Of a stretch of DNA of 24,834 bases, positions 1,042 to 20,758 are shown in pieces. A program made the position numbers and the translations under genes. Positions within the stretch are counted from its first letter, which is position 1, and every line of letters begins with the position of its first letter. The stretch is taken from positions 1 to 24,834 of the IMG/VR virus record IMGVR_UViG_2563366939_000004; one strand, written 5' to 3'. This stretch comes from a virus (taxonomy: Duplodnaviria; Heunggongvirae; Uroviricota; Caudoviricetes). The notes beneath the pieces were generated by a model. That model saw nothing but the letters and a program-made list of their open reading frames with translations. It searched no databases and was not told the origin of the DNA.

Positions 1042-1909
1042 TTGTCACCCCCATTGATATGCAGGGTGTCTTCTTCCTGTATTTTTCGTGAAGGATTTTT
1101 ACTGCAGCGTTGTTCCAGGTGACCTGATGGTGAATGCGTTTATGGCTGGCACCCATCAGTGAGATTTTTACGCACGACGGCGCATACATGACGGAGTAAA
1201 AACTTTTAACGTAGGTTCCGGAATCCAGATACAGCTCGGTCATTCCGCCGCTGTTTTTCTGCGTCTGTTTCTGCCCTAACTGGACAGCACCGATCGTCAT
1301 AAACAATTCACCACAGCGACCGAGATTCGTGTACGTATTCACATCCTCGTTAATGCGCCCCATGAATGAGAACGGTCGATCAACCGAACAGATAAAGCTG
1401 TTCATTGCCTTGCGTTTCACCCACGAAGCATGGCCGCCATTGTCACCAAGAAAATCCCCGCCCTGCGACATAGCGATGGAAAGCGCGGGTATTGATTCGT
1501 AATACGCCAGCATTTCAGAAAGGATCGCATCCAGTTTCCTTATCGGGAAATAGGCCTGGTCATAGTTGCGATCCACCCGAAACTGGAACTCGTGATAATC
1601 ATCATCGAACTGAATGAAGTATTTACACCCGACCAGTTTTGCCAGGTCGAAACAGGCATTACGGGCGTAAAAAATTGAGCGGCGGTCACCAAAATTATCG
1701 GCTTCGTCAAAACGACTGGCAATATCGGCTTTGGAAAATACCAGCACCTGTTCACCAAATTCAGCCATGTACTGATGCCGTGTCTTATCTTCATCATCAA
1801 CAACGATAAAAATTTTCCCGGTATAGCCAGCACGACGCAACGTCCGGTAAGTCAGAACTTTGTCCGGTCGCCCGTGAGTCAGAATAAAGGCGCAAAAATC
1901 ATCACGCAT
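977..1909 (-). CDS. Uncharacterised 310-aa protein; motifs suggest a GT-A-fold nucleotide-sugar transferase-like enzyme (IFIVVDDEDK ... FIQFDDDYHEF); no PP-loop, no TM segments
   Basis: ORF with GGAGG RBS 5 nt upstream of ATG; start overlaps stop of upstream ParB-like gene by 8 nt (ATGCGTGA) indicating translational coupling. Fold assignment is motif-based inference only. Confidence 0.6.
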   Translation of the reverse strand: MRDDFCAFILTHGRPDKVLTYRTLRRAGYTGKIFIVVDDEDKTRHQYMAEFGEQVLVFSKADIASRFDEADNFGDRRSIFYARNACFDLAKLVGCKYFIQFDDDYHEFQFRVDRNYDQAYFPIRKLDAILSEMLAYYESIPALSIAMSQGGDFLGDNGGHASWVKRKAMNSFICSVDRPFSFMGRINEDVNTYTNLGRCGELFMTIGAVQLGQKQTQKNSGGMTELYLDSGTYVKSFYSVMYAPSCVKISLMGASHKRIHHQVTWNNAAVKILHEKYRKKTPCISMGVTNDSVFESRVSGSVPDDCTTNR

Positions 1910-2690
1910 ATTCCTCCTCCCCGCTATGCATGATCGCCACCATGCGCTGCGTCATTCGGACAAATCCATTTTCAATAGCCTGCTGATAATCAATGATCAC
2001 CAGCGCCGACTCCTCGAAAAGGCACTGAATTTCAGCGGGGGCATGAGCGTAATAGTCCGCAATTCTGCTGAAATTAAACACCGTGTGACGTTCTGCCGCA
2101 CACAGGAGGAATTTCTCAATATCAGGATCAAGGGACGCCGAACGTATCCGGCTGATCAGCTCCTGAGTTTTCGTATCGTCGTACAGTTCACTGATATCCG
2201 GTTTACCGCCCGACGGCTCATAAACAGGCGTATCAATTTTCGTCGTATACGGCTCCTCCTTATTTCCTGTACCGGGCAAAACATCCGTCAACAGTTCATC
2301 AATTTCTGTCGGGCCGAAGCCTGTCAGGGAGACATCAAAATCAGCATTGATTAGGTCCGACAGCTCCATCCGCAATAGATCTTCATCCCAGCCAGCATTC
2401 ATCGGTAGGCGATTATCTGCCAGGCGGTACGCCTTTTTCTGCTCATCCGTCAGGCCAGACAGAACAATGACCGGAACAGAATCCATTTTGAGCATTTCAG
2501 CCGCCATAACACGACCGTGACCCGCAATAATTTCGCCCTTTTCGTCAATCAGCACCGGATTAGTCCAGCCGAATTGCTTAATACTTTCTACCAGTTGTGC
2601 CACCTGCTCAGTACTGTGCGTCCTGGCGTTGTGCGCATACGGTGACAATTCTTGTAATGGGCGATAGACTATCTTTAATTTCTCGCTCAT
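1902..2690 (-). CDS. ParB/Srx-like nuclease-domain protein (262 aa)
   Basis: N-terminal ParB-N-like region (KIVYRPLQELSPYAHNARTHS...VLIDEKGEIIAGHGRVMAA); acidic C-terminal half; first gene of a two-gene cassette. Confidence 0.65.
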   Translation of the reverse strand: MSEKLKIVYRPLQELSPYAHNARTHSTEQVAQLVESIKQFGWTNPVLIDEKGEIIAGHGRVMAAEMLKMDSVPVIVLSGLTDEQKKAYRLADNRLPMNAGWDEDLLRMELSDLINADFDVSLTGFGPTEIDELLTDVLPGTGNKEEPYTTKIDTPVYEPSGGKPDISELYDDTKTQELISRIRSASLDPDIEKFLLCAAERHTVFNFSRIADYYAHAPAEIQCLFEESALVIIDYQQAIENGFVRMTQRMVAIMHSGEEEYA

Positions 2691-2827: not shown

Positions 2828-4285
2828 TTAGGAGCGCCAAAAAAAACCTGAAAACAATATAATAACAGGATAAATTTCAAGGCGACCAAGAATCATAGCT
2901 ATGCACATTAAATATTTTGCAATGTCATTAAGCACTCCGAATGACGATGCAGTAGCCCCAAAACCTAATCCCATATTATTAATACATGCAGCCACTGTTG
3001 CAAATGATGTAAGAAAATCATATCCCATACCATTTAACACCAGTATAAAAAACACCGTGAAGAGAGTATAAAGAAAAAAGAAACTCCATACAGACCTCAT
3101 TACACGATCTGTAACTATCTTCCCTCCTACATTTACACTCAACAACGCTCTGGGATGAGAAAGCTGATTTATCTCGTGTTTGCTTTGTTTGAAAAGTATA
3201 AGAAATCGAAGTGACTTAATTCCACCACAAGTTGAACCTATACATCCCCCAAAGAAACTTGACAACAGCAAAAACACTATCGTGTGCGTGGGCCAGTTTG
3301 CATAATCCTGCGTAGCTAAACCATTATCAGTGAGCATGGAGCTGGCAAGAAAAAACGAATGAATAAAACTTCCATGCAAGTCATACATACCTATATGCCA
3401 GACCTGGAAAGAGGTAACAATGATCACCCCTAAGGCTATTAACAGAAAGAAACGAAGTTCAATATCTCTGATTAAAGGTTTTATCGTTTTCCTGCTAATA
3501 ACAATATACCAAAGAGTGAAGTTGAAAGCCGATAGCAGGGAAAAAGAACCAGCCACCAGCTCAACCAAATAGTTATTAAAATATCCGATACTCTCGCTAT
3601 GAGTTGAGAAACCACCAAGCGAAACTGTGGAAATCCCGTGACAAATAGCATCAAACAAAGGCATTCCTGCAAGTCTATAACAGACAATACAAGCAATACC
3701 TAATAAAGAATAAGTTATCCACAGTGTCCGTGACGTATCGGCCAGGCGGGGAGTGAGTTTGTCATCCTTAAATGGCCCCGGCATTTCTGACTGATAAAGC
3801 TTTGCACCACCAATACCCAATAATGGCAATACAGCAACCGCCAGAACAATAACTCCTAAACCACCTATAAAATTTAACTGTGACCGATAGTACAAATATG
3901 CCCGAGGTAATGAACTAACATCATCAATTACAGTTGCTCCTGTTGTTGTTATTCCAGAAACCCCTTCAAACAGAGCATCAATGAACGTTAAATTAAGTTC
4001 TGAGTCAATCCATAAAGGGAATGCACTAATAACAGAAAACAAAATCCAAAACATTACAATTATAATAAACCCATCACGGGTACGTAATTGAATGCCAGAT
4101 TTCTTAGTTGTATACCACGCTCCGCCACCAATGCAAAAAAATATAACGAAAGTTATAAAGAAAACGAACAGGCTTTTTTCTTTATAAAACAATGCTACAA
4201 CCATTGGTGGCAACATTGAAAGACTATAGAGCCAAACCAGGAACCCACACATATGAGTAACAACTCTTACATGAGATGTATTCAT
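2828..4285 (-). CDS. trkG: TrkG, Trk-system K+ uptake membrane protein (485 aa from ATG at 4285; ORF-track start is an upstream TTG)
   Basis: Polytopic membrane protein starting MNTSHVRVVTHMCGFLVWLYSL..., matches my recollection of the K-12 Rac-encoded TrkG; strongly AT-rich relative to flanking DNA. Confidence 0.85.
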   Translation of the reverse strand: MNTSHVRVVTHMCGFLVWLYSLSMLPPMVVALFYKEKSLFVFFITFVIFFCIGGGAWYTTKKSGIQLRTRDGFIIIVMFWILFSVISAFPLWIDSELNLTFIDALFEGVSGITTTGATVIDDVSSLPRAYLYYRSQLNFIGGLGVIVLAVAVLPLLGIGGAKLYQSEMPGPFKDDKLTPRLADTSRTLWITYSLLGIACIVCYRLAGMPLFDAICHGISTVSLGGFSTHSESIGYFNNYLVELVAGSFSLLSAFNFTLWYIVISRKTIKPLIRDIELRFFLLIALGVIIVTSFQVWHIGMYDLHGSFIHSFFLASSMLTDNGLATQDYANWPTHTIVFLLLSSFFGGCIGSTCGGIKSLRFLILFKQSKHEINQLSHPRALLSVNVGGKIVTDRVMRSVWSFFFLYTLFTVFFILVLNGMGYDFLTSFATVAACINNMGLGFGATASSFGVLNDIAKYLMCIAMILGRLEIYPVIILFSGFFWRS

Positions 4286-4422: not shown

Positions 4423-4899
4423 TTACTTTAAACACTGTTCGGTTATGTATTGCTGAGCACCTTCAAGTTGGGCCTGCATCATTACCAGTCGTTCCCGGAG
4501 GGTGAAATAATCCCGTTCAGCGGTGTCTGCCAGTCGGGGGGAGGCTGCATTATCCACGCCGGAGGCGGTGGTGGCTTCACGCACTGACTGACAGACTGCT
4601 TTGATGTGCAACCGACGACGACCAGCGGCAACATCATCACGCAGAGCATCATTTTCAGCTTTCGCATCAGCTAACTCCTTCGTGTATTTTGCATCGAGCG
4701 CAGCAACATCACGCTGACGCATCTGCATGTCAGTAATTGCCGCGTTCGCCAGCTTCAGTTCTCTGGCATTTTTGTCGCGCTGGGCTTTGTAGGTAATGGC
4801 GTTATCACGGTAATGATTAACAGCCCATGACAGGCAGACGATGATGCAGATAACCAGAGCGGAGATAATCGCGGTTACTCTGTTCATTGCTGACCCCAC
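4423..4899 (-). CDS. Rz-type i-spanin (inner-membrane spanin), full length
   Basis: 158 aa, N-terminal TM ([18 protein letters not shown]), coiled-coil-like periplasmic part; immediately downstream of endolysin with 16-nt overlap; equivalent of rzpR position. Confidence 0.8.
4482..4667 (-). CDS. Rz1-type o-spanin lipoprotein nested in +1 frame inside Rz
   Basis: 61 aa, lipobox-like LVVVGC, proline-rich ([13 protein letters not shown]); fully embedded in Rz gene; equivalent of rzoR. Confidence 0.8.
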
Positions 4900-5381
4900 A
4901 AACAGATTTCACGCTCAATCTCACGACGAGTCATGAGACCTTTCCATTGCTTACCGCCAGCATATGTCCAGCGACGTAGCTGATCACATGCGCCTTTGAT
5001 ATCGCCCTGGTTTATTTTGCGAAGAAGCGTCGATGTTCTGAAATTGCCAGCACCCACGTTGTAAACGAATGAGTAAAGAGCGCCGCGCGTTGTTTCCGGT
5101 ATATCGACTTTGATGTACGGGTTAATTTGTCTGGCGACAGTGGCAAGGTCTTTATTCAAGAGTGCTTTGCATTCTGCTTTGGTATACGTTTTACCGAGCA
5201 TGATGTCTTTTCCTGTATGCCCGTGACATACAGTCCATACACCAACAATATCTTTGTATGGTATGTAGCTGACACCTTCCAGACCATCGTTACCACTTGG
5301 GCCAGTGATTAACACTGATGCTATAGCAATTGCTCCGCCACCAATAGCAGCAGCAACGACTTTTCGTAATGATGGAGGCAT
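4884..5381 (-). CDS. SAR endolysin (phage 21 R21-type lysozyme with N-terminal signal-arrest-release segment)
   Basis: 165 aa; Gly/Ala-rich weakly hydrophobic N-terminus ([20 protein letters not shown]) followed by lysozyme-like domain; ATG overlaps holin stop (TAATG). Confidence 0.8.
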
Positions 5382-5596
5382 TATTCACCTCTCGCAGCCT
5401 TGCGCTTATCTTCTTTAATCTTGAAATAAAGGTTTGTCAGGTACGTCAGCAGGCCAAATACCAGACTACCCAGCACACCGATTGCAGCCCACTGTGACGG
5501 AGTTACTCTATCGAGCAACTGTAAAAACCAGTAGCCAGCACTGCCTGCGGAGGTGCCATAGGCGACACCTGTTGTTAACTTATCCATGGATTTCAT
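5381..5596 (-). CDS. Class II holin, phage 21 S21-type pinholin (71 aa) with dual-start motif MKSM
   Basis: [71 protein letters not shown] closely resembles S21 from memory; ORF-track 102-aa version is an upstream in-frame extension. Confidence 0.8.
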
Positions 5597-5945
5597 AACC
5601 CCCACCTCGCAGATGCGGGCGCTGTGTAATGGAAACAAAAAATGGCCACCAGCGGCCCGTAAAAAACACCCCGTCAAAAGCACCGGCATCCGCAGATGCC
5701 CTTTGCGTGGCGTTATTTGATGCGCGCCAGATGTGGCGCAAAGAAATGAAATAAGACTTATCGAAAATTAAGGTTAATTTGATGATTTAAACCACTTCTG
5801 AAGCTTAGTAGTATGAACATGTCCCCAGAAGGGGCCAATACTTATTATTCTTCATGGACTTTGTCCCGCGGTCTTAATCCGACGACCGCGCTACTTTTCA
5901 CCCTCTCGCAAATTGCTATCTAAAGGACGTTGTCCCACGAGTATT

Positions 5946-6371: not shown

Positions 6372-6446
<75 letters not shown>

Positions 6447-6449
6447 ATA

Positions 6450-6525
<76 letters not shown>

Positions 6526-8773: not shown

Positions 8774-8929
8774 TTACTCCTCAGGTTCGTAAGCTGTGAA
8801 GACAGCGACCTCCGTCTGGCCGGTTCGGATTCGTACCTCACAGAGGTCTTTCCTCGTTACCAGTGCCGTCACTATGACGGTTAAACAGATGACGATCAGG
8901 GCGATTAACATCGCCTTTTGCTGCTTCAT
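8774..8929 (-). CDS. Hok-family type I toxin (51 aa)
   Basis: Hand translation gives MKQQKAMLIALIVICLTVIVTALVTRKDLCEVRIRTGQTEVAVFTAYEPEE, a Hok/Gef family sequence; missed by ORF track because under 60 aa. Confidence 0.85.
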   Translation of the reverse strand: MKQQKAMLIALIVICLTVIVTALVTRKDLCEVRIRTGQTEVAVFTAYEPEE

Positions 8930-9451
8930 AGCCTGCTTCTCCTTGACCTTTCGGTCCGTAAGAGGCTAATCTCTATGTGTCGCATAGATATGGCCTCAGA
9001 TTAATGTTAAACGTCTTGCAGGACGCGTAATGTTAACTGGGGCTTTTCTCTATCTACCTTTGGTGTTCATGCCCGAGGCAGATAGCCTCAAGCACCCACA
9101 GCAATTCTAACTATCCAATACATCACTGCCAACACTTTAAACTCTTACCCTTTAAAACAAGAACAAAATTCAACCAATCAGCATTGGGCGTATACTCATA
9201 TCCTAGAGAAAACAACTCTTTCTGTACTATTTATATCCATATGATTTATAAGCATTTGCCACTTGCCATAGCCGCACAATGACAGTTTGCCATTTGATGT
9301 CAATAGATAAAAATGATCGTTTTCAATGAGTTACATACTTGCAAGGCGTTGCACATCAGGCCCGATTACGTCAGTATCAAAAGATTACAGATGGTGCATT
9401 ACTGCCACCTCGCCTTAATGTTCCAGAACTCTCCAACTTGAGGAATTTTCA

Positions 9452-10225
9452 ATGACATCCTTTCAATTATCTTTGATTTCTCGTGAAATTGACGGCGAAA
9501 TAATACATTTACGTGCCAAAGATGGTTACATAAACGCCACATCAATGTGTAGAACTGCGGGCAAACTGCTCTCTGATTACACTAGACTCAAAACTACTCA
9601 AGAGTTTTTTGACGAATTATCACGCGATATGGGAATTCCCATATCGGAGTTAATTCAATCATTTAAAGGTGGAAGACCTGAAAACCAAGGGACATGGGTG
9701 CATCCTGACATCGCTATTAATCTAGCGCAGTGGCTATCGCCCAAATTTGCAGTCCAGGTTTCAAGATGGGTTCGTGAATGGATGTCAGGGGAAAGAACTA
9801 CAGCAGAAATGCCTGTACATTTAAAACGGTACATGGTTAATCGTAGTAGAATTCCTCACACGCACTTTTCTATTCTTAATGAACTGACATTCAACTTGGT
9901 TGCACCTCTTGAACAAGCAGGGTACACACTCCCAGAAAAAATGGTTCCTGACATTTCACAAGGAAGAGTATTTTCACAATGGTTAAGAGATAATAGAAAC
10001 ATAGAACCCAAAACATTCCCTACCTATGACCATGAATATCCCGATGGTCGCGTATACCCTGCAAGGCTGTACCCAAATGAATATTTAGCAGATTTCAAAG
10101 AACATTTTAACAATATTTGGTTGCCGCAATATGCCCCGAAATACTTCGCTGACCGGGACAAAAAGGCTCTCGCCTTGATTGAAAAAATTATGCTACCTAA
10201 CCTCGATGGCAATGAACAGTTCTAA
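9452..10225 (+). CDS. KilA-N domain protein with uncharacterised C-terminal domain (257 aa)
   Basis: N-terminal KilA-N/APSES-like region (IDGEIIHLRAKDGYINATSMCRTAGK...WVHPDIAINLAQWLSPKFAVQVSRWV); GAGGA RBS; opposite strand to neighbours; AT-rich flanks. Confidence 0.65.
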   Translation: MTSFQLSLISREIDGEIIHLRAKDGYINATSMCRTAGKLLSDYTRLKTTQEFFDELSRDMGIPISELIQSFKGGRPENQGTWVHPDIAINLAQWLSPKFAVQVSRWVREWMSGERTTAEMPVHLKRYMVNRSRIPHTHFSILNELTFNLVAPLEQAGYTLPEKMVPDISQGRVFSQWLRDNRNIEPKTFPTYDHEYPDGRVYPARLYPNEYLADFKEHFNNIWLPQYAPKYFADRDKKALALIEKIMLPNLDGNEQF

Positions 10226-10227
10226 AT

Positions 10228-10258
10228 GATTAGCCAGCCCCATAAGGGCTGGTTATTT
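10228..10258 (+). terminator. Putative intrinsic terminator after KilA-N gene
   Basis: agccagccccataagggctggttattt: stem CCAGCCC/GGGCTGG followed by T-rich tract. Confidence 0.5.
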
Positions 10259-10265
10259 AGTATTA

Positions 10266-10349
10266 TCAACCCCAGCGGCAAATCGAATACACCACCAGCG
10301 CCACCGCCATCGCAATTCCTACCGTTGTGAATGCTTCAGACCAGGTCAT
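10266..10349 (-). CDS. Putative 27-aa hydrophobic small protein (MTWSEAFTTVGIAMAVALVVYSICRWG)
   Basis: GGAGG 9 nt upstream of ATG; single TM-like segment; immediately downstream of 149-aa gene. Confidence 0.25.
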   Translation of the reverse strand: MTWSEAFTTVGIAMAVALVVYSICRWG

Positions 10350-10398
10350 CGTAAAACATCCTCCACGCTTATAAGTCCGCTTCGCTCCAGGTAGTCCA

Positions 10399-10848
10399 TC
10401 ACTTTATCCGGCAATTTGCAGCCGGTTTCGCTTTCTTCAGTTGACTAACCAATTGTTTAACCAGCATTGTCAATTCGCGAACTTGTTTCCCGGGCTCCCC
10501 TTTGCCCTGAAGCAGGGCAGCGCGGCAAGCGTTCCATCCCTCAGCATATGTTTCAGTTACACCATCGAGATGGCATGTAAGCAAATCCATTTCTTCCGGC
10601 ACTACGGGCGCTGGAAAAACGGCATAGGATGGCGTCCATTTTGGCGCTTTATCTCCAGCCGAACGCTGATACCAGTCATCCGGTTTGTATTCATAAAAAT
10701 CACCAACTGGCTCTGCTTCCAGAGATGCCAGAGCAATTTTGAATAATTCGCCCTCTACCCGTGCCATCCCTGAATTGGGGTGGCATTTCTCAATCGCTAT
10801 TTTTAATTTAGCTTCTTCGATTAATTGCTTTTTGGTTAATTCAGTCAT
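10399..10848 (-). CDS. Hypothetical phage protein (149 aa)
   Basis: ORF in early-region operon; no recognisable motif. Confidence 0.5.
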   Translation of the reverse strand: MTELTKKQLIEEAKLKIAIEKCHPNSGMARVEGELFKIALASLEAEPVGDFYEYKPDDWYQRSAGDKAPKWTPSYAVFPAPVVPEEMDLLTCHLDGVTETYAEGWNACRAALLQGKGEPGKQVRELTMLVKQLVSQLKKAKPAANCRIK

Positions 10849-11009: not shown

Positions 11010-11447
11010 TCACAACAGCACATCCTGAAAATTACCCTGATAGAACGCCAGTACACGCTGTATGACTTCGCTCTTCCGGCACTCGCGACAGATTATATTC
11101 AGACGCCTGTCATAGCGGCGTATTTCTCCGTCTGGTAATGACCAGATAAGGTCCGGATCAACTACAGCAGGTTTCTTCACCTTTGCCCTCGATAGTTTTT
11201 TGCGGGCGTTTTGCCAGTCCTTACGAGCCTGTTCAGAGGGAAATAGCCCGTAGCCGGAGTTATATACATCGCCACTGGCAACCAGCTCTCTGGCGAGAAC
11301 GCTCATTAAATATCTTGTCGCACCTGTCTTAGCTTCAAGTTGTCGTAACGTCTCGCGCCCATTCTGGCGCACGAGTTCAACAACCTGCCCCTTAATTTTT
11401 TCCCGCTCTTCTTGTGTAAATACTTTTGCCATAAGCGCCTCCGGCAA
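11010..11447 (-). CDS. Hypothetical phage protein (145 aa), basic, CxxC pair near C-terminus
   Basis: ORF abutting stop of upstream gene. Confidence 0.5.
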   Translation of the reverse strand: MPEALMAKVFTQEEREKIKGQVVELVRQNGRETLRQLEAKTGATRYLMSVLARELVASGDVYNSGYGLFPSEQARKDWQNARKKLSRAKVKKPAVVDPDLIWSLPDGEIRRYDRRLNIICRECRKSEVIQRVLAFYQGNFQDVLL

Positions 11448-12209
11448 TCACTTTTCCGATACAACACAGCGGGAAGAATCAGTAATCTGGCGAACAATAT
11501 CCCGGTGCTTGTTCAACTCCCGCAGCGCGGCGCAGACACGCTCCCACTTCTGGACATGGCTTTTCGCCCGACGCAGTTCACGATTTGCTATATGCAGCGA
11601 TGGTAAAATCAGGTTATCCGCTTGCGTTTCAGTAAACGATGGCAACGACTGCACAATGTCCGCCACAGTTTCTGTTTTAATATCTTCCTGTGTTGCAGCT
11701 TCCAGTACTGGTAACGCAACACCGGCTGGCTGAGGAAAGGCTTTACCATCAGTTTCCGCTACCGATGCAGCTTTCGGCTCTGCTGGTAAATTATCGCCCG
11801 GCATGCAGTAACGAAATTTACCGTTCTGATTAACGCGAATCAGACGACCTTTACTGATTGCCATTGCCAGCGTTGAAGCCACTTTGCGTGATGTGATGCC
11901 GAAAAACGTAGCCAGTTCTTCCGCCGTTTGTGGGCCACGTTGTTCAATCGTCGCAGTTAAATCGCACTCCGAAATTTTTGCGACTGTTGCCGTGGTGGTT
12001 TCTTCCGGCAGTTCTGCCTGCTCTGGCTGTTCCTGCTGAACGTTGTTATCAGCCACGCGCCAGGTGTATACGCTTTTATCAACGAAGCCAGCCTTTTTCA
12101 GTTCCCACAGCTCGTTCAGCACTTCTTCACGACTGATATCAAGTCGCGCAGCCAGTTCTACCGACGTAGCTTTCCCCATTGCTTTCAGTGCGTCAAAAAC
12201 AGTCTCCAT
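11448..12209 (-). CDS. Hypothetical protein with two winged-helix-like DNA-binding segments (about 254 aa from ATG at 12209; longer start at 12260 possible)
   Basis: Repeated HTH-like segments ([30 protein letters not shown] and [31 protein letters not shown]); GGAG upstream of 12209. Confidence 0.5.
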
Positions 12210-12231
12210 TAAATTTTTCTCCCGGTAAAAA

Positions 12232-12978
12232 TTACTTCGCAATTCCTGGCTGGACGACATTCGGACGCCAGCTCTCCCAGTTAAAATTCACCCATCGCCC
12301 GCCGTTCATGGTCATGCGATCCATAATCCGCTCGCCGAGCAATGTTTTCATGGCCCCATAGTTCAGGTTTGTCAGCATCCCCACGCTGCGCATCGACGCT
12401 GTCCGGCGATCAACAATCTGGTGCAGTACCACCTGCTCGTTTTTCGTCTCGCGCTGAATGCCAATTTCATCAAGAACCAGCAGATCCACTTCGCACAGTT
12501 CCCGCAAAAATTTTTCGCCTGATTTCCCGTCGTCATAGCTGGCGTGTAGAGCACTCATGACATCAGCCACGGTAACCACAATCACTGTCTGGCCATCTTT
12601 CAGCAGGCGATTCCCGATTGCCGCCGCCAGATGGTTTTTTCCGGTACCAGGTTTTCCGCTGAACGCAAAATTTGTACACCCGGTCATCAGTTCATCAGCG
12701 ATAGATTTCGCCTGGCTCAACGCGTATCGCTGGCCGTCGTTCTGCACCAGGTAATTCGCAAACGAGCATTTGCGGTGCAACGGCTGGATGCCGGAGCGAT
12801 TCAGGATTTTTTCCACCCGCAACTGACGATTCTGACGGTTGATCTCCTCACAACGTTTCTGGCCTTCTGCAAGTTGCCACTCGCGCCACTCAGCCACCGT
12901 CCTGAATGGGGCGGTTACATGTGGCGGGGCCAGTCTGCGGATACGTTCAAGAATGCCGCCTGCCGCAATATTTTTCAT
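12232..12978 (-). CDS. ydaV: DnaC/IstB-like AAA+ replication protein (helicase loader, lambda P analogue)
   Basis: Walker [16 protein letters not shown] and Walker B LLVLDEIG; 248 aa as recalled for K-12 YdaV. Confidence 0.8.
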
Positions 12979-12984
12979 GGTCAG

Positions 12985-13842
12985 TTACCCCCTGAAGCCT
13001 GGCGGGATCGCACTATCCGGTAACGAGACGGTGTTAACCTGTCGGAGTAACGTCTCAGGTCGAACACCTTTTGGCGCGAACAAGCCCTGGTATTCATTGG
13101 CGATGCTGTGTCGAATCACCTGCTCAGGTGAAAAACCCTGCTGGCGGAATTTTTCCAGCTCCCGTATCGCCCCGTTAGCGCCCTGCTCCGTTCGAATCGG
13201 TTTACGCAATGCCTGGCGAAATTCAACCCACTCACGCCAAAGCGAGACAGAAATCCAGTTCGGCAAAGCAATATCCAGAGGGTCAAACTTTTTAACACCT
13301 CGATTCCCCCGGGGGGGATTTAGGGGGGGATCTGTTTTTAGATCTTTATCTGTATCTTTATTAGTTGCCTTTGTGTTGACATCGTGTTCAAACACCACTT
13401 CAACATCTGTTTGAACACCTGTTAAATTTCTCTCTTGTTTTGTTTGAACATCTGCTTCCTTTCTGCTTCTTCTGGCCTGAACCGATGCTTTTCCTGCGGC
13501 TGATTTTTTGGTTAATTTTTCCCTGACTGATGCCAGATCTTCCTCAATCCGAAGATGCACCCATTCCTCGCCGTTATCACAAAAAAACTCCCGCAAGGAT
13601 GGTTCAACATCAGCCCATCGCTCGTTAGTCAGGCGGGCAATTTTTGCCAGCCTGTTTTTGGGTATTGGCTTTCCTGTTTGCCAGTAATTGAACATCAGCA
13701 ACAAATACGCACCGTGCTCCTCTGCTGACAAATGCATGGTGTCAGCCAGGTAATCAGCTATGTACAGTTGCATGTATGGTAATGCGGCCATAATTGCCCC
13801 GTATGATGCTGCCCGGTTGCTTAGAATAAGCACAAACAGCAT
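12985..13842 (-). CDS. ydaU: Replication initiation-type protein (lambda O analogue position), YdaU-like
   Basis: 285-aa ORF upstream of DnaC-like gene; length and synteny match recalled K-12 YdaU. Confidence 0.7.
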   Translation of the reverse strand: MLFVLILSNRAASYGAIMAALPYMQLYIADYLADTMHLSAEEHGAYLLLMFNYWQTGKPIPKNRLAKIARLTNERWADVEPSLREFFCDNGEEWVHLRIEEDLASVREKLTKKSAAGKASVQARRSRKEADVQTKQERNLTGVQTDVEVVFEHDVNTKATNKDTDKDLKTDPPLNPPRGNRGVKKFDPLDIALPNWISVSLWREWVEFRQALRKPIRTEQGANGAIRELEKFRQQGFSPEQVIRHSIANEYQGLFAPKGVRPETLLRQVNTVSLPDSAIPPGFRG

Positions 13843-13854
13843 GGAAACTTTTGC

Positions 13855-14277
13855 TTAATGAACAATGACAGAATCGTCGGAAGACCCGCCGCCGCTGAAA
13901 TGTGCTTTCCGGTAAACGGCTTGGACTGCATCATCATGCGCATCAATTGCCGTACTTAACGCTTCCTGCGCCGCCAGTAATGCACGGCGTTCCAGGGTAT
14001 CGAAGATGCAGAGTCGGTGACGCAGCTCGCGCGGAAGGATTGCCAGAATTGCTGGGATCAGCTTCTGAATTTTTTCTCTTTGCGTTTTCGTTTCACCTTT
14101 CAACCAACGGTGATAGATATTCTGCTGATTGTTCCAGTCCTTGCCTGGAACCAGGGGCAATTCGCCGTCCCCCTGGCGCAGATATTCTTCAGTAATTGCA
14201 TTGGCTACCCATGCCTGCCCTTTTTCGGCTGCCAGGGCTAACAACACTGATTCGATGTGCTCATGCTTGATTTTCAT
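13855..14277 (-). CDS. ydaT: YdaT (CII-position protein of Rac immunity region)
   Basis: 140 aa; ATGA overlap with ydaS stop; synteny with racR. Confidence 0.75.
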   Translation of the reverse strand: MKIKHEHIESVLLALAAEKGQAWVANAITEEYLRQGDGELPLVPGKDWNNQQNIYHRWLKGETKTQREKIQKLIPAILAILPRELRHRLCIFDTLERRALLAAQEALSTAIDAHDDAVQAVYRKAHFSGGGSSDDSVIVH

Positions 14278-14528
14278 GAATCAACTCCCATCAGCTTTTT
14301 CGTAGTAGTTTTATTTTTGCCAATAGTTAAAATTGCATCGGCAGAAAATAATCCGTTTGATGCATGAGCGATTTTTTCAGCGTAATTTGTTTCGCCGGTA
14401 TATTCTGTGCGAGGCAGTTTTCCGTTATCCATCCATTTGTAGATTGCTCTTTGGCTGACACCACAAACGTCGGCCACAACAGAAACGCGAACAGTTTTGA
14501 TTACATCTTCAAGTGTTTTCTGGTTCAT
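14274..14528 (-). CDS. ydaS: YdaS, Cro-like HTH protein (start at ATG 14528 with GAGGGTGA RBS; ORF-track version is extended upstream)
   Basis: HTH segment VVADVCGVSQRAIYKWM; divergent from racR. Confidence 0.7.
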   Translation of the reverse strand: MNQKTLEDVIKTVRVSVVADVCGVSQRAIYKWMDNGKLPRTEYTGETNYAEKIAHASNGLFSADAILTIGKNKTTTKKLMGVDS

Positions 14529-14607
14529 ATCACCCTCACAATGTGAACTTTGAGTACATGCTATAACAGAACTGACAGTACATTCAAGAGCGAATATCAT
14601 TGAACTT
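14529..14607. promoter_or_regulatory. Divergent racR / ydaS promoter-operator region (OR-like)
   Basis: Repeated AGTACAT motifs (14553, 14576) between divergently oriented repressor and Cro-like genes. Confidence 0.5.
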
Positions 14608-15027
14608 ATGGTTCATGAAGATAAAGCGCGTAAAGAGTTCGCCAGTAGGCTTGCGCTAGCCTGTGAAAACGCTGGTTATGAACAACATGGAAGGCAGGCA
14701 GAAATTGCCCGTCGAATGAAATTAACACCAAAAGCGGTTAGCAAATGGTTTAATGGCGAAACAATTCCTCGCCGAGAGAAATTAAGGGAATTAGCAACAC
14801 TCATTGGAACAACACCAACCTATCTTTTGGGAGAGGATACAGAAGAAAGTGGACAGGTACGTTTCTATCAGGAGTTAAATCCAAGACAAAAAATCATCAT
14901 TGACCTTCTGGACGAGCTCCCTGACAGTGAGACAGATGAACTTTTAAAAACTCTTGAGGAGAAAAAACAGAAGTACAATGCAATTTACGAAGAGTTAGCA
15001 CGAAAGAAAAAACAAAAAGCCTCTTAA
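14608..15027 (+). CDS. racR: RacR prophage repressor (HTH, XRE-like)
   Basis: 139-aa ORF with HTH (MKLTPKAVSKWFNGETIP); first in-frame ATG; in-frame stop at 14551 limits N-terminal extension. Confidence 0.8.
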   Translation: MVHEDKARKEFASRLALACENAGYEQHGRQAEIARRMKLTPKAVSKWFNGETIPRREKLRELATLIGTTPTYLLGEDTEESGQVRFYQELNPRQKIIIDLLDELPDSETDELLKTLEEKKQKYNAIYEELARKKKQKAS

Positions 15028-20326: not shown

Positions 20327-20382
20327 TTCAGTCTGGCGGTGTAATGCACCGCCAACTTGAAATATTTTTTATGAGAAAAATT

Positions 20383-20577
20383 ATGAGATATGACAATGTT
20401 AAACCATGTCCATTTTGTGGTTGTCCATCAGTAACGGTGAAAGCCATTTCAGGATATTACCGAGCGAAGTGTAACGGATGCGAATCCCGAACCGGTTATG
20501 GTGGAAGTGAAAAAGAAGCACTCGAAAGATGGAATAAACGAACCACTGGAAATAATAATGGAGGTGTTCATGTATAA
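20383..20577 (+). CDS. ralR: RalR (Lar), restriction-alleviation protein / type I TA toxin
   Basis: 64 aa MRYDNVKPCPFCGCPSVTVKAISGYYRAKCNGCESRTGYGG... Confidence 0.85.
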   Translation: MRYDNVKPCPFCGCPSVTVKAISGYYRAKCNGCESRTGYGGSEKEALERWNKRTTGNNNGGVHV

Positions 20578-20758
20578 AATTACCGCCACTATTGAAAAGG
20601 AAGGTGGCACTCCTACTAACTGGACAAGATATTCAAAATCTAAACTAACGAAATCAGAATGCGAAAAAATGCTCTCAGGTAAAAAAGAAGCAGCCGTTTC
20701 CAGAGAGCAGAAAGTAAAACTGATAAATTTTAATTGCGAGAGACTTCAGTCCTCGTGA
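20570..20758 (+). CDS. rcbA: YdaC/RcbA small protein (62 aa from ATG 20570)
   Basis: GGAGGTG RBS; start overlaps ralR stop; synteny between ralR and xisR. Confidence 0.6.
   Translation: MYKITATIEKEGGTPTNWTRYSKSKLTKSECEKMLSGKKEAAVSREQKVKLINFNCERLQSS

Follow-up and report, generated by a model that had tools for sequence, protein, structure and literature searches.

The 24,834-nucleotide (nt) stretch analysed here, positions 1 to 24,834 of IMG/VR virus record IMGVR_UViG_2563366939_000004 (Caudoviricetes), is referred to below as the window. On its minus strand, at 10266..10349, lies a small open reading frame (ORF) of 27 codons, whose signals and neighbours are collected in Table 1. An earlier, sequence-only reading of the window had singled it out as a 27-amino-acid (aa) frame with a single transmembrane helix and a GGAGG ribosome binding site, and the coordinates, the motif and the hydrophobicity bear this description out, the helix being a prediction. 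Residues 6-24 of the peptide are hydrophobic (mean of 2.11 for the 19-residue Kyte-Doolittle window AFTTVGIAMAVALVVYSIC; grand average of hydropathy, 1.12) and lie between MTWSE, the acidic N-terminus, and RWG, the basic/aromatic C-terminus. The surrounding 2.5 kb contains 45 ORFs of at least 20 aa, and the arrangement GGAGG-N4-10-ATG occurs five times in the window, with 4.3 occurrences expected by chance. An ORF preceded by GGAGG is thus at chance level in this DNA, and the significance of the one described here rests wholly on the comparison with its relatives.

We gathered homologues using degenerate-codon DNA patterns. The resulting set comprises 252 copies, with 75 unique DNAs encoding 37 unique peptides, all of which keep the hydrophobic core. 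The first pattern applied to IMG/VR constrained codons 1-16 only; the stop follows codon 27 in 121 of 125 copies, and the exceptions include two stop-loss extensions (38 and 40 aa) and one copy that runs off its contig. The second pattern constrained codons 1-6 and 25-28 and returned 123 more copies, with quite different alleles among them; none contains an internal stop and all 123 are 27 aa long. E. coli (Escherichia coli) RMDEC332 carries a 25-aa variant, MTWSEAFTTVGIALAVVVYSICRWG, which has an in-frame 6-nt deletion within the helix. The copy in Shigella phage POCJ13 has a TAG at codon 3 in place of the invariant tryptophan, and is therefore a pseudogene.

The pattern of substitution is that of a coding sequence. 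Fitch parsimony assigns 44, 40 and 139 changes to the first, second and third codon positions, respectively, the third changing about three times as often as either of the others. M1, W3, A6, G11, R25 and W26 are invariant, and P4, A15, A17, S22 and C24 are at least 90% conserved. Alleles with a DNA identity as low as 65% retain the conserved residues and the length of 27 aa (examples are MSWPDAIVTLGMVFAAAFVVYSICRWG and MNWPEAFTAVGVAIAVAFILYSLFRWG). Among alleles that are 65-83% identical in DNA, the Nei-Gojobori ratio of non-synonymous to synonymous substitution rates (dN/dS) is 0.11-0.41 in the sense frame.

The translation signals are conserved as well, and the search patterns had left both the ATGA tetranucleotide and the Shine-Dalgarno (SD) sequence unconstrained. 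ATGA is present in all 76 unique contexts that we compared, and the upstream frame ends in that very TGA in 70 of them. The SD lies in differing codon contexts, being read as Q-E-V in one class (CAGGAGGTG) and as V-E-D in another (GTGGAGGAT). Its retention across these contexts points to selection for initiation, and not for the upstream protein sequence. Conservation of the frame in relatives had been named in the sequence-only reading as a way to check its proposal of a functional small membrane-peptide gene; frame, length, start, SD and stop are all kept over hundreds of copies in many contexts. On these grounds 10266..10349 is very probably a real, selected protein-coding gene.

The 76 contexts, taken from IMG/VR and GenBank, also reveal a sharply delimited island of homology. 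Within the 84 nt of the ORF, the columns have a mean pairwise identity of 0.84-0.98; the value is 0.29-0.38 directly after the stop and 0.37-0.57 upstream, where the SD block at -12 to -7 (identity, 0.77) is the only conserved stretch in otherwise unrelated coding sequences. When flanks were included in the BLAST query, many alignments covered exactly query positions 72-151, from the ATG to just before the stop; with the ORF alone, nearly all alignments spanned positions 1 to 80-84. The contexts include at least eight unrelated upstream gene ends, among them LERSGLISVEDVLR, HWMPLPEPPQEVNQ (DUF551 type), NDLKNIEQEVNR (coiled-coil Ea22 type), ACRAAMLKKKGMNQ (EaA) and ERMPDDRQEVNQ, each followed by the stop codon, as well as the end of a gene for a protein with a dATP/dGTP-pyrophosphohydrolase domain. 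More than ten unrelated sequences are found downstream, including several hairpins, the hok/mok leader of Shiga toxin (Stx) phages, and a DUF4222 gene that begins 4 nt past the stop. Lambdoid mosaicism is usually explained by non-homologous recombination followed by selection that keeps functional genes. Mosaic joints that fall precisely on the start and the end of a frame of 27 codons are themselves a sign of selection on that frame.

In most phages the ORF directly follows Ea22-, EaA- or DUF551-type genes and precedes xis/int, and in Stx phages it is often directly upstream of the hok/mok locus. In BP-4795, PhiR12_1 and PhiR5_1 it exactly fills an annotation gap, with the upstream gene ending at positions +1/+4 of the ORF and the next gene starting 4 nt past its stop. 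The sequence-only reading had placed the ORF at the end of an operon. This is correct for the window and for many relatives, but the position is not general: in other phages the ORF is located in mid-operon, and the S/N-type alleles of many IMG/VR loci, whose stop lies 4 nt before the DUF4222 ATG, are tightly packed on both sides.

The 84-nt ORF is matched by BLAST in 1610 of 5426 complete E. coli genomes (approximately 30%), at 3050 places, of which 163 are plasmid-borne, and with up to seven copies per genome. By tblastn, the peptide is encoded in 90-95 of 50,697 phage records, which include 933W (gene L0139 underlies the match), VT2-Sakai, Min27, Stx2 II, BP-4795, ArgO145, and phage-plasmid-sized genomes. 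When one genome per species was scanned with degenerate codons, the ORF was found in Escherichia and Shigella only, plus two tiny contigs under other names, of 431 bp (filed as Xanthomonas pisi) and 369 bp (filed as Acinetobacter idrijaensis), which are most likely assembly contamination. A record named 'Actinobacillus phage vB_Apl-pPE4' contains an E. coli-like copy, and one partial Salmonella protein of the family is present in the protein collection. No homologue was found in the Rac, Qin and CPS-53 prophages of K-12 MG1655 (DLP12 and e14 were not covered), which is probably why the small-protein screens and catalogues of K-12 missed the peptide.

The ORF had been described as unannotated, and it is indeed missing from all RefSeq and GenBank annotations that we inspected. 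Common gene callers apply a minimum length of 90 nt, and an ORF of 84 nt is thus left out. In the protein collection, the exact P4 peptide is found on 79 contigs as 'bacteriophage protein' or 'hypothetical protein', and the S4 variant of the window is not found. In two phages, long ORFs on the opposite strand have been annotated across the small ORF and its upstream gene (Min27 ORF82, locus 1678-2250, minus strand; Stx2 II ORF C38, locus 1501-2250, minus strand); these look like spurious shadow ORFs masking real genes. A fusion of the peptide to DUF551 was considered and rejected: the clustering at 90% with 121-aa DUF551 proteins is an artefact, as those proteins do not contain the peptide, and the link seems to be due to contig-edge fragments in the small-ORF frame that are labelled 'DUF551, partial'. 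A full-text literature search for the peptide strings returned no paper. A ribosome profiling survey of E. coli O157:H7 Sakai considered only ORFs of at least 30 aa (PMC5597208), a cutoff that would put a 27-aa ORF outside its detection; neither the peptide nor its DNA appears in the supplements of that paper.

The window is a Rac-type lambdoid prophage integrated beside ttcA and dbpA. Its Rac-type identity is confirmed by the RalA antitoxin small RNA (Rfam RF02694, 220 bits) at 20576-20754 on the minus strand, beside a ralR-like ORF (20344-20577) and recT/recE-like genes. The rightward early operon, divergent from the HTH_3 repressor gene, has the small ORF as its last frame (Table 1). A convergent terminator had been claimed 3' of the ORF. 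There is a hairpin at this place, but it is terminator-like on the plus strand only; when the minus-strand RNA is folded, the stem forms and the U-tract is poor. The hairpin therefore belongs mainly to the convergent KilA-N/BstA-like gene on the opposite strand. Another short hydrophobic ORF, encoding a hokD-type toxin of 51 aa (8774-8929, minus strand), is located about 1.3 kb from the small ORF and is possibly the one that the sequence-only reading had counted as its first; its partner, the sok antisense RNA (Rfam RF01794, 101 bits), is at 8927-9097 on the minus strand. The prophage also contains tRNA-Gly(TCC) and tRNA-Thr(TGT) genes (6372-6525, minus strand), between a DUF1133/Q-like gene and the lysis cassette.

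Table 1. Coordinates of the small ORF, its signals and the neighbouring features in the window.
Feature	Position	Strand	Remarks
27-codon ORF plus TGA	10266..10349	minus	Encodes MTWSEAFTTVGIAMAVALVVYSICRWG; ATG 10349-10347, TGA 10268-10266
Shine-Dalgarno sequence GGAGG	10360..10364	minus	10 nt 5' of the ATG of the 27-codon ORF
Predicted single transmembrane helix, codons 6-24	10278..10334	minus	Includes the conserved small residues G11, A15 and A17
ATGA tetranucleotide	10346..10349	minus	In relatives, TGA of the upstream gene overlaps ATG of the small ORF (translational-coupling arrangement)
149-aa ORF	10399..10848	minus	Frameshift-truncated 167-aa phrog_660-type early-region gene with YfdT-like N-terminus
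1-nt deletion site	10422..10423	minus	CCGGC in the window, CCGGGC in relatives (alignment column 478)
Orphaned 3' end (last 22 codons) of the 167-aa gene	10346..10414	minus	Frame MPDKVMDYLERSGLISVEDVLR followed by the stop; unjoined from the 149-aa frame in the window
HTH_3 repressor gene	14608-15027	plus	
ydaS-like gene	14274-14600	minus	First gene of the early operon
YdaT	13855-14277	minus	
DUF1376	12985-13842	minus	
IstB/DnaC-like	12232-12978	minus	
DUF1627	11448-12260	minus	
DUF977	11010-11447	minus	
KilA-N gene, BstA abortive-infection homologue	9452-10225	plus	Convergent on the small ORF; phrog_6287, E = 5e-89; PADLOC BstA, E = 3e-21
Hairpin, 10-bp stem with 6 G-C pairs	10231-10255		Between the convergent genes, 10 nt 3' of the stop of the small ORF
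Lysis cassette	4884-5689		Lysozyme (Phage_lysozyme) 4884-5381; holin (Phage_holin_2_1) 5381-5689

The ORF had further been described as lying just after a 149-aa gene. It does follow this frame, across a gap of 49 nt, but the 149-aa frame is a frameshifted allele of a 167-aa gene. We aligned the window with phage vB_EcoS-666R9 and with E. coli A17, to which it is 99.6% identical over 2.1 kb; in both of these relatives, the upstream gene encodes 167 aa and its TGA overlaps the ATG of the small ORF. The single-nucleotide deletion in the window, which removes one G of a GGG run, reflects either a sequencing error or a recent mutation that made the gene a pseudogene. Of the examined loci that share both flank and ORF variant with the window, none but the window itself has an open upstream frame of fewer than 60 codons; a short open upstream frame is also seen in several fetched loci of other types. 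The N-terminus of the 149/167-aa protein resembles that of K-12 YfdT (MTxxTxKxLIxExK...ALxSLExEP). In K-12, yfdS (DUF551) is directly followed by yfdT, with no copy of the small ORF between them.

Comparison of the peptide with Pfam, NCBIfam, PHROGs and PADLOC gave nothing or sub-threshold noise, and a PDB search with a profile of 13 peptides gave no match. The score against KdpF (TIGR02115) was 12 bits, with a cutoff of 26.85, and the small ORF is located in a prophage early operon, not in kdpFABC. The glycine-zipper anchor DUF883_C (PF19029) scored 14 bits, with a threshold of 27 (E = 0.041). The defence models of PADLOC-DB did not match the peptide; as listed in Table 1, they do match the neighbouring convergent gene. 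Rfam returned nothing at 10100-10550 even at E values up to 10, and the folding of 181 nt of RNA at the site showed no unusual stability (z = -1.6).

Several observations weigh against reading the locus as a protein-coding gene with the properties given above. The wobble-aligned antisense frame is open in 49 of 51 sequences and has a dN/dS of 0.17-0.59. As this mirrors the sense frame, dN/dS alone cannot fix the strand, and we did not use it as a deciding argument. The strand is fixed instead by the invariant ATG, the SD and the stop, by the lack of an antisense start codon in the window (there is no ORF of at least 20 aa beginning with ATG, GTG or TTG in the antisense frame), and by flanks of the antisense frame that are non-homologous between contexts. 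Most of our search patterns required some conserved residues, so that conservation at those positions is inflated. Third positions are also very conserved, at 0.88 in the ORF and 0.66 in the neighbouring gene (one context class), which could reflect recent spread, gene conversion or a constraint at the nucleotide level. The SD spacing of 10 nt in the window is at the long end. Finally, the peptide has no homology to any characterised protein, and its function, topology and partner are inferred.

The high conservation of synonymous sites in the common allele, exceeding that of the adjacent gene, is one reason to consider a nucleotide element in which the ORF is incidental: a recombination joint or 'linker' for the exchange of ea/nin modules, or a binding site in RNA or DNA. 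The sharp boundaries of the island, with unrelated sequence on both sides, would suit such an element, and up to seven copies per genome would favour exchange by homologous recombination. This explanation is very unlikely, however, given the threefold excess of third-position changes, the alleles of only 65-73% DNA identity that keep the 27-aa length and the key residues, and the fact that the sole indel variant, the 6-nt deletion, preserves the frame. Start, SD and stop are kept in unrelated contexts, and neither an Rfam match nor a significant RNA structure was found at the site. An additional role in recombination may exist, yet it would leave the coding features unexplained. Even less probable is a detachable tail anchor, in which some ribosomes would shift frame at the ATGA and fuse the helix to the upstream Ea22/DUF551-type protein, tethering it to the membrane. 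In its favour, the small ORF universally overlaps the upstream gene by 4 nt, a DUF551 label is attached to some partial database proteins read in its frame, and the upstream partners, according to PMC10834534, form a family of mosaic proteins with portable C-terminal domains. Against this, the conserved SD at the right distance and the invariant ATG point to independent initiation, and no conserved slippery heptamer is visible, as the last upstream codons differ (AATCAATGA, TTACGATGA, GAAATGATGA). The proteins labelled DUF551 are contig-edge fragments or the 121-aa proteins without the peptide, and in the window no fusion is possible because the upstream frame ends 49 nt earlier. A chance open frame without function, which the background of ORFs and GGAGG motifs in the window would allow, can effectively be dismissed, since frame, length, start and stop are conserved over unrelated contexts, and we give it the lowest probability of all.

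A different alternative accepts the gene and makes its product a membrane-damaging effector, which, as an oligomer, would depolarise or permeabilise the inner membrane in the manner of type I toxins (Hok, TisB, DinQ, ShoB) or of a minimal holin or antiholin. The peptide is very short and very hydrophobic, its face of small G/A residues would suit self-association, and both the frequent location directly upstream of hok/mok in Stx phages and the sub-threshold glycine-zipper match are in line with this idea. We nevertheless consider it unlikely. The ORF is not a stand-alone toxin locus, being coupled by ATGA to the upstream gene in 70 of the 76 contexts, and Rfam detected no antisense or overlapping small RNA family at the site, even though sok and RalA were found in the window. 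It belongs to the early operon, about 4.6 kb from the lysis cassette, and the peptide matches no toxin family and no holin of Pfam or PHROGs. Conservation is highest at both termini and not in the core alone, which fits specific contacts better than pore formation.

We therefore return to the reading that we consider likely overall, namely that the ORF is the gene for a 27-residue single-pass inner-membrane peptide, and a mobile one-gene module of Escherichia/Shigella lambdoid (pro)phages. The proposal of an unannotated functional gene is thereby upheld, to the extent that a conserved frame, length, start, SD and stop can do so. Insertion of the peptide into the membrane is also probable, judging from its hydrophobic segment. 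Transcription would take place within a repressor-controlled early operon: in the window the rightward ydaS-ydaT-DUF1376-DnaC-like-DUF1627-DUF977-167aa operon, and in Stx phages, among others, the ea/exo-xis portion of the leftward one. Translation would start from the ORF's own SD and, because its ATG overlaps the upstream TGA, would normally be reinforced by termination-reinitiation coupling at the ATGA; in the window, where the deletion ends the upstream gene 49 nt early, only the SD route would remain.

By the positive-inside rule, R25 would be cytoplasmic, so that the peptide is expected to insert with its acidic N-terminus (M-x-W-P-[ED]-A) in the periplasm and its C-terminal [CF]-R-W-G in the cytoplasm. 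It may then act through the conserved termini and the helix face formed by G11, A15 and A17, most likely by binding and modulating an inner-membrane protein of the host or the phage during early lytic growth. The termini and these three residues are the most conserved parts; elsewhere in the core, one hydrophobic residue replaces another. This pattern favours specific helix-helix binding over non-specific damage. We tentatively prefer a partner-binding modulator to a membrane-damaging peptide, though we would put its chances at somewhat under even.

A number of known small membrane proteins invite comparison. AcrZ, MgtS, MgrB, PmrR, KdpF and CydX are small single-pass inner-membrane proteins with regulatory or accessory roles in enterobacteria. 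Like them, the peptide described here has no more than 50 residues and one hydrophobic helix, is encoded within operons or at their ends, has escaped annotation and has a narrow taxonomic range; it also likely shares their mode of action, helix-helix contact with a larger membrane protein. The features of this class found here are selection on a short frame, with conserved start, stop and length, and one hydrophobic segment of bilayer-spanning length. Unlike these proteins, the small ORF is phage-borne, mobile and multi-copy instead of chromosomal and syntenic, and there is no sequence relationship. With the type I toxins (HokD of the window, DinQ, TisB, ShoB, Ibs) it has in common that it encodes a tiny hydrophobic prophage peptide, often beside hok/mok in Stx phages; it differs from them in its coupling within a polycistronic early operon, in the lack of homology, and in that no cognate antisense RNA was found by Rfam.

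T4 Imm and Sp, HK97 gp15 and P22 SieA are phage membrane proteins of approximately 80-160 aa that act in superinfection block or membrane signalling. The product of the small ORF resembles them in being phage-encoded, a predicted membrane peptide, dispensable-looking, and carried on a module that moves in mosaic fashion, but it is shorter. The superinfection-exclusion proteins of temperate phages are usually expressed from the prophage, whereas the small ORF seems to depend on early lytic transcription. In most phages it shares its neighbourhood with the small lambdoid exo-xis/ea genes (lambda orf60a, orf61, orf63 and ea8.5; Ea22 variants). The proteins of that region are soluble and 60-180 aa long, unlike the 27-aa predicted membrane peptide, and in the window the ORF has been relocated to the last position of the rightward replication operon. 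The exo-xis genes are described as early and repressor-controlled (PMC7093339), and the small ORF is not among the exo-xis ORFs named in the accessible part of that article; by analogy, its expression in this region would be early and repressor-controlled too. Two reports state that the exo-xis region influences the lysis-lysogeny decision (PMC7093339, PMC10834534). By the same analogy, a role of the peptide in the lysis-lysogeny decision or in superinfection exclusion is plausible.

Our results point to a systematic blind spot, as gene callers discard ORFs of fewer than 30 codons and at least one ribosome profiling survey left them out. Mosaic boundaries can be used to detect such tiny genes, and the evidence provided by them is unusually clean in the present case. 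The small ORF makes a clean candidate for inclusion among the very small membrane proteins with a regulatory effect on larger ones, a class that is growing, and its neighbourhood, ea/exo-xis, has already been implicated in the choice between lysis and lysogeny in Stx phages. A more far-reaching and rather doubtful possibility is that the peptide is a widespread phage effector that binds a specific inner-membrane protein of E. coli early after induction or infection, possibly FtsH, a component of the divisome or the respiratory chain, or a transporter or receptor that competing phages use. It would thereby alter superinfection, lysis-lysogeny or host physiology, and crossovers at the ORF-bounded island would shuffle Ea22/DUF551-type modules between prophages resident in the same cell. 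If the ORF is expressed, about one third of sequenced E. coli strains, including most Shiga-toxin phage lineages, would harbour, in one to seven copies, a membrane-active phage gene that is uncharacterised and that standard annotation omits.

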